A stretch of DNA of 58,259 bases from Nanobdellati archaeon (GTDB taxonomy: Archaea > Nanobdellota > Nanobdellia > UBA10117). Positions 25,584-42,629 of the stretch are shown one piece after another. The notes under the pieces were generated by a model. That model did not search any database, was not told where the DNA came from, and worked only from the letters and a program-made list of their open reading frames with translations. The position numbers and the translations under genes are program-made. Position 1 is the first letter of the stretch, and each line of letters begins with the position of its first letter. Location: the NCBI GenBank assembly GCA_016204275.1, contig JACQKZ010000012.1, forward strand, positions 1 through 58,259. Reading direction: 5' to 3'.

Positions 25584-26620
25584 GTTTTATTATTCTCCTT
25601 TTGGTTTATTAATGTTTGCTTGGTCCCGCAGGCCTGAGTTGAACAGGCAACCTCCCGGGCTACAGCCGGGCGCTCTGGCCATTGAGCTACTGCAGGATTT
25701 AGAGAATTAACTGCCGAGTTTGCCAGAATTTCCATTGTGTCAAAAATTTCGGAGCCATCGGACGCAATTATAAGTTGCAAATCAGTGCAGGCTAACAATA
25801 TTACATCTGCGCCGCGCTTTTTCAGGCCGGAAATTATCATGTGCAGTTTTTTTGAATCTGTTTTATTTGTCTGGCCAGTCCGCAAAACATTTTTTATCGC
25901 GCGCAGGATTGATTCTTGCTCGGTATCGTTTGGAATTACAGTGTTGATGTTTTCCTTTGCCAGCGCGTTTTGGAATAGGTTTGAATTTATTGTTGATGTT
26001 GTTGCAAGCAGGCCTGCGCATTTCACACTCTTTTCTTTGAACTCTGAAATTATTTCGTCTACAATGCTTATTATTGGAACATCTGATAGTTCACGGAATA
26101 TATCAATAAACAGATGCAACGTGTTGCATGGAATAACTATAAAATCTACATTGGCGGAATTAAGCTTTTTTATACAATCTATAGCAAACGGCAGCAAAAG
26201 CCGCGGGTTGTTGCTGATCGCCTCTTTTTCCAGGTCTAGCGGAACTGCGGCGTTTGCCAGCACTACTTTTGGCCTGCCCTTTGCCAGCTTTCTTGACAAT
26301 GAGATTAATCTTGTAAAGAACTCTGCAGTTGTTTCAGGCCCGAAACCGCCAACAACACCGATCACCGGCGCCTTTTCGCATAGGGCATCGCGCACATGCT
26401 TATTTATTTCAATTGAATGCGAATTGCCGAAAGTAACAATTCCAAGCTTCTGCAAAACCCTCAGATTATGCCAAACCGTTGATTTTGGCACATCTTTTAT
26501 AGAAGAAACAAATTGCGTAGCAGTCCCGTTAAATGAAACTAGTTTCACCAGCAAAAGCTTCTGCTTATCACTGAGAGAAAATTCAAGCAGCCGTTTGATA
26601 AAGAGAGTCCCGACTATCAA
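25565..26620 (-). CDS. winged-helix DNA-binding domain fused to aspartate/glutamate racemase
   Basis: About 90 aa of N-terminal HTH-like sequence (..STVWHNLRVLQKLGIV..), then racemase motifs VGGFGPETT and LLACTDL. The ORF has no stop until 25565, so its last 45 or so codons run through the tRNA-Tyr gene. Confidence 0.7.
   Translation of the reverse strand: MIVGTLFIKRLLEFSLSDKQKLLLVKLVSFNGTATQFVSSIKDVPKSTVWHNLRVLQKLGIVTFGNSHSIEINKHVRDALCEKAPVIGVVGGFGPETTAEFFTRLISLSRKLAKGRPKVVLANAAVPLDLEKEAISNNPRLLLPFAIDCIKKLNSANVDFIVIPCNTLHLFIDIFRELSDVPIISIVDEIISEFKEKSVKCAGLLATTSTINSNLFQNALAKENINTVIPNDTEQESILRAIKNVLRTGQTNKTDSKKLHMIISGLKKRGADVILLACTDLQLIIASDGSEIFDTMEILANSAVNSLNPAVAQWPERPAVAREVACSTQACGTKQTLINQKENNKTWTLKN
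25621..25696 (-). tRNA. tRNA-Tyr: tRNA-Tyr (GUA), intron-less, CCA encoded
   Basis: Hand fold: acceptor CCTGCAG/CTGCGGG, D arm GCTC/GAGC, anticodon arm CCCGG-CTGTAGC-CCGGG, T arm GCCTG-TTCAACT-CAGGC, discriminator A followed by CCA. Confidence 0.85.
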
Positions 26621-41900: not shown

Positions 41901-41911
41901 TTTAATTTTTA
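41901..41911 (+). promoter_or_regulatory. putative TATA-like box for the tRNA-Lys(CUU)/tRNA-Ala(UGC) unit
   Basis: TTTAATTTTTA centred about 30 nt upstream of tRNA position 1. Confidence 0.35.
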
Positions 41912-41936
41912 AACCATAATTTACGTTTTATTTCGT

Positions 41937-42126
41937 GGGTCCGTAGCTCAGTCTGGCTAGAGCGCCTGCCTCTTAATATTAAGAGCAAGCAGGATGTCGC
42001 GAGTTCGAAACGGAGATGCCTTCCGTTGGGTTGTGTAACAACCCGACCCGGGGAGGGTCAGGATGAGCGTCCAACTGGGGAGGGGTGGAACCCCTCCGCG
42101 GTTCCGAGAAAGTCTCGTCGGGCCCG
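41937..42126 (+). tRNA. tRNA-Lys: tRNA-Lys (CUU) with two introns: 12 nt in the anticodon loop and about 103 nt in the T-loop
   Basis: Hand fold: acceptor GGGTCCG/CGGGCCC (one G:U pair), D arm GCTC/GAGC, anticodon arm CCTGC-CTCTTA[12 nt]A-GCAGG, T arm GCGAG-TTCGAAA[42011-42113]-CTCGT. The exons sum to 75 nt. The intron is GC-rich with three hairpins. Confidence 0.7.
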
Positions 42127-42127
42127 C

Positions 42128-42358
42128 GGGCTGGTAGTCCAACCTGGTACGGCTTTCAAAGCCGCAGGAAAGAACGTCTGCTTTGCAACAGCAGCCTTTC
42201 TTTTTATTGCGAAAAGAAAGGCTCCTGGGCATCCAAAGAAAAGCGCGAGGGCATCTCGTGTTACTCGATGCCCAATGTCAGAAGAGCAGAAGGCTAGGGG
42301 TTCAAACAAGACGAAACTAGTTTTGCTAGTTTCTTGTCAGAAAATCCCCTCCAGTCCA
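42128..42358 (+). tRNA. tRNA-Ala: tRNA-Ala (UGC) with two clear introns (97 nt anticodon loop, 38 nt T-loop) and a probable third insertion of about 22 nt in the D arm
   Basis: Acceptor GGGCTGG/CCAGTCC gives the G3:U70 alanine identity pair. Anticodon arm TCTGC-TTTGCA[42188-42284]A-GCAGA. T arm AGGGG-TTCAAAC[38 nt]-CCCCT. The D region is about 22 nt too long and includes the hairpin CGGCT-TTCAA-AGCCG. The gene starts 2 nt after tRNA-Lys(CUU). Confidence 0.65.
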
Positions 42359-42413
42359 CTTATGATAAAAACCAAGTTTTTGGCATTTCGCCAACAGAGT
42401 TCGGCGTTACAAA

Positions 42414-42424
42414 CTTTTTTAAAA
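42414..42424 (+). promoter_or_regulatory. putative TATA-like box for tRNA-Lys(UUU)
   Basis: CTTTTTTAAAA centred 27 nt upstream of tRNA position 1. Confidence 0.4.
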
Positions 42425-42445
42425 CATCAATGTAGCTTTATTTTT

Positions 42446-42629
42446 GGGCCCGTAACTCAGCTTGGTTAGAGTGGCAGCCTTTTACGGCAGCCTTTCTTTT
42501 TTGCGAAAGAAAGGCTCCCGGGCATCCAAAGAAAATGCGATGGCATCTACGATGCCATAAACTTTGGATAACTGAGAAGAGAGCTGCAAGTCGAGGGTTC
42601 GAATATAATAGAAAATCCCTCCGGGCCCG
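42446..42629 (+). tRNA. tRNA-Lys: tRNA-Lys (UUU) with two introns: 97 nt in the anticodon loop and 12 nt in the T-loop
   Basis: Acceptor GGGCCCG/CGGGCCC, D arm ACTC/GAGT, anticodon arm GCAGC-CTTTTA[42485-42581]A-GCTGC, T arm GAGGG-TTCGAAT[42605-42616]-CCCTC. The exons sum to 75 nt. Confidence 0.75.

Follow-up and report, generated by a model that had tools for sequence, protein, structure and literature searches.

The forward strand of positions 41937-42629 in a 58,259-nucleotide (nt) window (the whole stretch of DNA that was analysed) from the genome of a DPANN archaeon, labelled G000, very probably contains three functional, heavily interrupted archaeal tRNA genes, whose introns derive from repeat families and would be processed by the splicing endonuclease EndA and the ligase RtcB. 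The genes encode tRNA-Lys(CUU), tRNA-Ala(UGC) and tRNA-Lys(UUU) and carry 2, 3 and 2 introns, respectively, with a T-loop intron in each. Excision of the seven inserts leaves three tRNAs of 75, 74 and 75 nt, in which ARAGORN recognises tRNA-Lys(ctt), tRNA-Ala(tgc) and tRNA-Lys(ttt); their cloverleaves are normal. All spliced products contain G53-C61 and a TTCRA T-loop, the alanine tRNA also contains G3:U70, and CCA is encoded in none of the genes. An earlier reading of this DNA (the original prediction) had proposed three tRNA genes with two or three introns each, always including one in the T-loop, and all the genes and all seven inserts were found where it had put them. Its anticodons were right, as were the lengths of the 37/38 introns (12, 97 and 97 nt) and of the T-loop inserts (103, 38 and 12 nt), the removal of about 22 nt from the alanine D arm (the intron at 42149-42170), the 75-nt exon sets of the first and third genes and the conserved bases just named. 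It had also warned that gene finders miss such genes; indeed, in the unspliced locus no tRNA was reported by ARAGORN or by Rfam at the gathering threshold, and Infernal gave only a 19-bit partial match at 41937-42007.

The exons can be compared with those of relatives, labelled G001-G022, among which G001 and G002 are congeners, G006 belongs to the same family and G011 to a different genus. Automatic intron resolution in the relatives, based on a motif score and ARAGORN, was abandoned as too permissive, with wrong anticodons in several genomes, and introns were annotated by hand against orthologues. Spliced tRNA-Lys(CUU) is identical to the uninterrupted G006 orthologue at 70 of 75 positions, and spliced tRNA-Ala(UGC) to an uninterrupted G005 gene at 64 of 74, in both cases with no indel at the junctions; spliced tRNA-Lys(UUU) aligns with uninterrupted genes of G006, G010 and G017. 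Covariation was analysed over nine tRNA-Lys(CUU) genes, four of them spliced (G000, G001, G011 and G005) and five uninterrupted. Cloverleaf cells are paired in 100% of cases, both-sided changes occur in 10/21 pairs, and no shuffled or slid control comes close to this. The T-stem appears as GCGAG/CTCGT, GAGGG/CCCTC or AAGGG/CCCTT, and its strands lie 103 nt apart in G000, so that this covariation is sensible only if the strands pair after splicing. The same cluster, in the same gene order and with similar upstream sequence, is present in G001, where the exons match those of G000 at 61/75 positions in Lys(CUU), 68/74 in Ala(UGC) and 73/76 in Lys(UUU). The G002 locus that matches the query (contig C7) is a different cluster, Ala(GGC) and Met, and G002 was kept outside the orthologue comparison.

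The orthologues also fix the position of the T-loop intron. The original prediction had placed the insert between the 7-nt loop and the 3' strand of the T-stem (60/61), with which nucleotide 60 would be A in Lys(CUU) and C in Ala(UGC); an intron at 59/60 gives T60 in all three genes. Since every intron-less Lys or Ala orthologue examined has TTCRAAT, and nucleotide 60 is T in these uninterrupted genes, the 60/61 placement was rejected in favour of 59/60, a shift that leaves the insert lengths unchanged. The T-arm of G006 Lys(CUU), GCGAG-TTCGAAT-CTCGT, is identical to the exons of G000 Lys(CUU). The geometry at 59/60 copies that of the canonical 37/38 site: the stem has 5 bp and the loop 7 nt, six of which precede the intron.

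A bulge-helix-bulge (BHB) or relaxed BHB motif is possible at every junction; that none could be formed had been named beforehand as grounds for discarding the prediction. The register used consists of four exon bases, two bulged exon bases and the cut, and of four intron bases, two bulged intron bases and the cut. In this register the 3' bulge is 3 nt in all seven introns, and the central helix is paired at 4/4 positions in the three anticodon-loop introns and the D-loop intron and at 3/4 in the three T-loop introns, where T54, T55 and C56 pair with the intron 3' end AGAA. Altogether, 25 of 28 central-helix positions are paired (binomial P ~2e-8, the pairing probability of random bases being 0.375). 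The 5-bp anticodon stem or T-stem serves as the outer helix, which the D-loop intron lacks; by one count such a 5-bp exon stem is used in five of the seven introns, the helix being absent or broken in the remaining two. Only the 103-nt T-loop intron of Lys(CUU) has a complete hBHBh' motif, with a 5-bp T-stem outer helix, a TTCG/AGAA central helix (3/4, G57xA), bulges AA^A and AG^T and an inner helix of 5+3 bp. The 12-nt 37/38 intron of the same gene has a 5-bp outer stem, the central helix CTCT/AGAG (4/4) and the 3' bulge CA^A, and its minimum free energy (MFE) fold shows the 3-nt 3' bulge. In Ala(UGC), the 22-nt D-loop intron forms CCTG/CAGG (4/4), an inner helix of 7 bp and bulges GT^A and AA^A; the 97-nt intron forms TTTG/CAGA (4/4) with a 5-bp outer stem and the 3' bulge AG^A; and the 38-nt intron forms TTCA/AGAA (3/4) with a 5-bp outer stem and the 3' bulge AA^T. 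For Lys(UUU), the 97-nt intron has a 5-bp outer stem, CTTT/GAAG (4/4) and the 3' bulge AG^A, and the 12-nt intron a 5-bp outer stem, TTCG/AGAA (3/4) and the 3' bulge AA^T. The MFE folds of this 12-nt intron and of the 38-nt intron have the register given here, and no regular inner helix is formed in the two 97-nt anticodon-loop introns. The BHB motifs are compatible with the lowest-energy fold, not always identical to it.

The cluster is not an isolated case in this genome. The assembly comprises 705 kb in 30 contigs and is 68% complete; ARAGORN and Rfam see only 4-6 tRNA genes in it, in a genome with at least 27, and with such standard tools both Lys tRNAs and Ala(UGC) would be scored missing. 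An anchored search, which required an acceptor stem and a T-arm and allowed a T-loop intron only at 59/60, yielded 24 convincing tRNA genes, the remaining introns of which were placed by a cloverleaf-scored search. Three of these genes are uninterrupted and 21/24 are interrupted: 17 have a 59/60 intron, which ends in AGAA-NN in 10 of the 17, about 14 have an anticodon-loop intron and about 7 a D-loop intron. Tracing of intron repeats added an interrupted Trp tRNA (anticodon loop and T-loop) and a Gln tRNA, both verified, together with a gene cut off by a contig end and the likely His gene, and the T-arm is interrupted in at least 21 of about 28 recognisable tRNA genes. These fractions are approximate, since the anchored search was limited to a 59/60 intron or none and the repeat-traced genes are biased to interrupted ones. 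No other Lys or Ala(UGC) gene was found in the 68%-complete assembly by ARAGORN, Infernal or the anchored search; intron-less copies of these isoacceptors, which the original prediction had named as evidence to the contrary, are among the genes for which no example turned up there.

Several individual genes met in the census deserve mention. There are two tRNA-Tyr(GTA) genes, an uninterrupted one at 25621-25696 (-) of the window and a second one on contig G000:C3 (minus strand, reverse-complement positions 1495-1651) with anticodon-loop and T-loop introns of 41 and 42 nt. The locus G000:C29:5195-5480 (+) is probably a tRNA-His(GTG) gene with two inserts of the repeat family called A below, and its T-loop could not be reconstructed as TTCRAAT. 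Contig G000:C19 begins (1-235, +) within a tRNA gene; the T-loop intron of this gene and the one in tRNA-Gly(TCC) share 97% identity, and the intron repeats appear to break the assembly.

The origin of the introns was addressed by BLAST of all long introns against the G000 genome. Family A, of about 97-105 nt, starts with ..CAGCC-TTTCTTTT, folds into a hairpin with AAAGAAAGG, continues with a second AAAGAAA run and a variable hairpin, and ends in ..AGAA-NN. At least 16 tRNA introns, some at 37/38 and others at 59/60, belong to it, among them the two 97-nt introns of the cluster, which are 88% identical over 69 nt; the Ala(UGC) one also resembles introns of other tRNAs. The GC-rich core of the 103-nt T-loop intron, 42049-42106, defines family B, which has copies at G000:C23:28334-28411, at G000:C5:18884-18938 and in relatives (up to 98% identical, in G002); in G009 and G007 it lies within the anticodon-loop intron of Lys(UUU). 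Sharing between genes extends beyond these families. A 53-nt T-loop intron is 100% identical in tRNA-Ser(TGA) (G000:C22, +, 1852-1904) and tRNA-Ser(GGA) (G000:C23, 35606-35658), the D-loop introns of Glu and Gly tRNAs are 77% identical, and the T-loop introns of Ala(UGC) in G000 and of Lys(CUU) in G011, a different genus, both of 38 nt, are homologous.

Comparison with the congener G001 shows how the content of the sites has changed. In Lys(CUU) the anticodon-loop and T-loop introns are 12 and 103 nt in G000 and 74 and 14 nt in G001; in Lys(UUU) they are 97 and 12 nt in G000 and 13 and 101 nt in G001. Ala(UGC) has D-loop, anticodon-loop and T-loop introns of 22, 97 and 38 nt in G000, and a 32-nt D-loop intron, no anticodon-loop intron and a 158-nt T-loop intron in G001; the D-loop intron of G001 is at the same site with a different inner hairpin. 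The 97-nt anticodon-loop intron of G000 Lys(UUU) aligns end to end with the 101-nt T-loop intron of G001 Lys(UUU), so that in this gene one element family occupies the anticodon loop in G000 and the T-loop in G001. To judge from these alignments, the introns are copies of a few repeat families rather than gene-specific sequences and were probably swapped between sites since the split from the congener. Uninterrupted versions of these tRNAs occur in other genera of the family (G004, G005, G006 and G010), and matches to the intron families are numerous only in the genera g1, g6 and g8, which together point to a recent, lineage-specific proliferation. The locus is an unusually clean natural experiment, in which the orthologues of congeners keep the intron sites with their contents exchanged.

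Features of the tRNA cluster and its upstream boxes, with positions in the window; the two boxes and the spacer were read from the sequence
Feature	Position	Strand	Remarks
A/T-rich TATA-like box	41902..41915	+	About 27 nt upstream of Lys(CUU); candidate promoter of Lys(CUU) and Ala(UGC)
tRNA-Lys(CUU)	41937..42126	+	Exons 41937-41975, 41988-42009, 42113-42126; G42126 is the discriminator
12-nt intron, 37/38 of Lys(CUU)	41976..41987	+	Bulge-helix-loop type
103-nt intron, 59/60 (T-loop) of Lys(CUU)	42010..42112	+	Family B core 42049-42106
1-nt spacer C42127	42127	+	Between the Lys(CUU) discriminator and G1 of Ala(UGC)
tRNA-Ala(UGC)	42128..42358	+	Exons 42128-42148, 42171-42187, 42285-42306, 42345-42358
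22-nt intron, D-loop (20/21) of Ala(UGC)	42149..42170	+	
97-nt intron, 37/38 of Ala(UGC)	42188..42284	+	Repeat family A
38-nt intron, 59/60 of Ala(UGC)	42307..42344	+	
A/T-rich TATA-like box	42412..42425	+	About 27 nt upstream of Lys(UUU)
tRNA-Lys(UUU)	42446..42629	+	Exons 42446-42484, 42582-42603, 42616-42629
97-nt intron, 37/38 of Lys(UUU)	42485..42581	+	Repeat family A
12-nt intron, 59/60 of Lys(UUU)	42604..42615	+	Bulge-helix-loop type

The spacer between Lys(CUU) and Ala(UGC), for which 2 nt had been expected, is a single nucleotide when G42126 is taken as the discriminator; in G001 it is 3 nt (CGT). Because one nucleotide leaves no room for a promoter, we infer that these two genes would be co-transcribed as a dicistronic precursor. 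The syntenic G001 locus has a similar box at an equal distance upstream of Lys(CUU), and the motif AAACTTTTTTAAA of the box upstream of Lys(UUU) is conserved in G001. Within the introns, Rfam gave no box C/D, H/ACA or other family at threshold. GGATGAG in the 103-nt intron was considered as part of a C/D-box element and set aside, since a D box is absent.

Enzymes for the processing of such transcripts were found in G000. There is one splicing endonuclease, EndA (G000:C29:51019-51720, 234 aa; PF01974 with 95.7 bits, and PF02778), a RtcB ligase (G000:C22:17804-19114, 562 bits) and Rpp29, a protein subunit of RNase P; neither RNase P RNA nor a second EndA subunit turned up in this 68%-complete assembly. 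EndA has a core of about 180 aa; among solved structures it is closest to the N. equitans alpha subunit (E = 2e-32) and to M. jannaschii alpha4 (E = 4e-31). The length of the CSL/ASL region equals that of M. jannaschii alpha4, and in a pairwise alignment EndA is gap-free to M. jannaschii at the position of the N. equitans L3 loop, a Lys-rich loop tied to broad specificity (Hirata, 2012, PMC3488258; Kaneta, 2018, PMC5829648). The original prediction called for a broad-specificity splicing endonuclease elsewhere in the genome: the endonuclease is there, but broad specificity was not clearly found, the enzyme being alpha4-like. EndA also has a 55-aa Lys/Glu-rich N-terminal extension, which aligns in G002, G007, G009, G010 and partly G008 and is absent from the 177-180-aa orthologues of G006 and G022; since the genomes that share or lack it are related, this distribution is only a hint. 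The only other EndA match in G000 is short, 26 residues from the C-terminus: the last 26 codons of the gene are repeated (69% identity) at G000:C29:51770-51847 (+), 50 nt past the stop. It is the same kind of repeat as the gene-end duplication at rpl37e, just upstream of the tRNA cluster.

The following mechanism is proposed. Two precursors would be made, one with Lys(CUU) and Ala(UGC) and the other with Lys(UUU), and each intron would pair with the adjoining exon in a BHB or bulge-helix-loop motif. For introns at 37/38, the anticodon stem would serve as the outer helix, with loop nucleotides 32-35 paired to the intron 3' end. At 59/60 the T-arm would play the same role, T54-T55-C56 pairing with AGAA and the 3' splice site lying in the 3-nt bulge A-R^T60. 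Judging from the gene content, cleavage and ligation would be accomplished by the single EndA, cutting both bulges, and by RtcB, joining the exons. The ends would be finished by RNase P, a 3' trimming nuclease and the CCA-adding enzyme.

Several observations weigh against this scheme. In all three genes the T-loop intron has an R57xA mismatch as the fourth pair of its central helix; neither 12-nt intron forms an inner helix, which makes both of them bulge-helix-loop motifs; the motifs of the D-loop intron (no outer helix) and T-loop intron (first inner pair mismatched) of Ala(UGC) are relaxed; and unconstrained folding returns the BHB register in four introns, the others being shifted to a neighbouring one. 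The Ala(UGC) D-stem, GTCC/GAAC, contains a C12xA23 mismatch; the same GTCC...GAAC D-stem is found in the uninterrupted D-arm of tRNA-Ala(CGC) of G009. The alpha4-like EndA is without the Lys-rich insertion of N. equitans (residues 90-98, catalytic His loop; a 6-residue insert), and relaxed-motif cleavage has been linked to EndA inserts (PMC5829648). The incomplete assembly may have missed a second EndA subunit or spare tRNA genes, and both splicing and co-transcription are inferred from sequence. Part of these points would fit genes that are functional but from which some inserts, the 12-nt or relaxed-motif ones, are removed by a non-EndA route or retained. The absent inner helices of the 12-nt introns and the T-loop mismatch favour this, together with the absent N. 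equitans insert and the report that alpha4 EndAs cleave strict BHB motifs only (PMC5829648). However, a T-loop or anticodon loop 12 nt larger would destroy the elbow contact or decoding, and the AGAA-NN^T ending in 10/17 T-loop introns points to selection for a common recognition motif. We also know of no other pathway of tRNA intron removal in archaea, and consider this possibility very unlikely.

It is similarly hard to believe that the loci are tRNA pseudogenes broken by repeat insertions, with working Lys and Ala(UGC) genes located in the unassembled third of the genome. The inserts are indeed copies of repeat families that are also found outside tRNA genes (by tRNA-Gln, at a gene start and in Elp3), and 68% completeness leaves room for other genes. 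Yet the exons are intact with all invariant tRNA positions kept, the stems covary across the inserts, a BHB-type motif can be formed at every insert, and the congener G001 keeps the exons and differs in the introns; nor can all the T-arm-interrupted genes, at least 21 of about 28, be pseudogenes in a translating organism. Three open reading frames (ORFs) of 83-147 aa, at 42026-42469 (+), 41957-42232 (-) and 42058-42309 (-), overlap the region and might speak for a protein-coding function, which is extremely improbable: the original prediction already took them as spurious, none of the ORFs overlapping the cluster has a Pfam match, relatives keep the exons and not the ORFs, and the sequence is fully explained by tRNA exons and repeated non-coding elements. 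The reading as functional interrupted tRNA genes is the one that we retain.

The gene structure belongs to a known class of multiple-intron archaeal tRNA genes, described in Thermoproteales, ARMAN and Asgard archaea. As far as the review of Thermoproteales describes them (PMC4033280, covering Sugahara, 2008, and Fujishima, 2010), their tRNA genes have up to three BHB-type introns at canonical and non-canonical sites, similar introns occur in different tRNAs, as here, and intron transposition was reported (Fujishima, 2010), with which the recent proliferation seen here agrees. Unlike that system, the present one belongs to a DPANN archaeon whose genome measures about 1 Mb at most, and its introns are concentrated at the D-loop, 37/38 and 59/60 rather than spread over the many sites which that review reports. 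The Thermoproteales EndA is an (alpha-beta)2 enzyme with a Crenarchaea-specific loop, whereas only an alpha-type gene was found in G000. ARMAN-1 and ARMAN-2 (Ca. Micrarchaeum; PMC3239211, PMC3488258) are also DPANN with non-canonical tRNA introns, and ARMAN-2 EndA was shown to cleave T-loop introns with a relaxed BHB in vitro (PMC3488258); that enzyme, however, is a three-unit epsilon2 EndA with an ASL loop, in contrast to the 234-aa single-unit EndA described here. Hidden disrupted tRNA genes were predicted in Woesearchaeota, Pacearchaeota and other DPANN, the tRNAscan-SE tRNA sets of which are incomplete (Kaneta, 2018; PMC5829648). The DPANN alpha4 EndAs of that study have the L3 loop, in contrast to the G000 enzyme with no insertion at L3, and here the hidden genes are resolved; a literature search found no paper resolving such genes in Woesearchaeota-like DPANN. 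In Asgard archaea, a concentration of called introns at the anticodon loop and T-arm, repeated recent gains and many genes missed by annotation software were described (bioRxiv 10.64898/2026.10.13.758758); they are another superphylum, and DPANN are not mentioned in that preprint. What goes beyond the routine here is the dominance of 59/60, the intron exchange between two loop sites of the same gene in congeners, and an EndA without the N. equitans-type insert. With relaxed motifs and such an EndA, the specificity determinants of the endonuclease are directly testable at this locus. It is also worth considering that missed tRNAs distort completeness estimates and inferences of metabolic dependence for DPANN genomes.

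Element copies were also found outside introns, which suggests movement at the DNA level. A possible, though doubtful, extension is that in this DPANN genus and two neighbouring genera structured mini-elements of about 40-105 nt are mobile DNA colonising the D-loop and the 37/38 and 59/60 sites of tRNA genes, the latter two in structurally equivalent 7-nt loops, where they would be kept as their ends complete a splicing motif, and that the ends of tRNA genes and of protein genes are further targets of insertion, with target duplications of 14-36 nt. The minimal alpha4-like EndA would then process relaxed motifs, perhaps helped by its Lys-rich N-terminal extension. If this were true, it would provide a DNA-level route for the gain and exchange of archaeal tRNA introns, a step called unexplained in the literature.

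The copies outside introns are of several kinds. The tRNA-Gln(TTG) gene (G000:C23:28230-28530, -) has a 30-nt T-arm intron near 53-55; 3' of it comes a family B element, behind which the tRNA 3' end plus trailer is repeated over 18 nt (AGCGGGGCTATATTTTTA), and this copy looks like an insertion with target duplication. Another family B copy, G000:C5:18884-18961 (-), coincides with the start codon of a gene resembling that for topoisomerase VI B, and the start region is present twice (TCAGATGAGCAG / TCAGAATGGCAG). In G002 (contig C10, L005, about 1430-1680), a 98%-identical family B core lies between two diverged ends of a membrane-protein gene (..GCCACGAAGGATTTTTTCCAGTCCCA). A family A copy at G000:C23:24960-25050 (+) is in frame and without stops in an Elp3-like ORF (G000:C23:24789-25550). 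It replaces a Cys-rich loop of 13-14 aa (..GCC..TKDEPC.NH..), which is present in G001, G002, G007, G008 and G009 and absent in the more distant G003-G005. A BHB intron in the Elp3 mRNA around this copy was considered and rejected, as its surroundings gave no convincing motif and the reading frame continues through the element; the copy may be translated.

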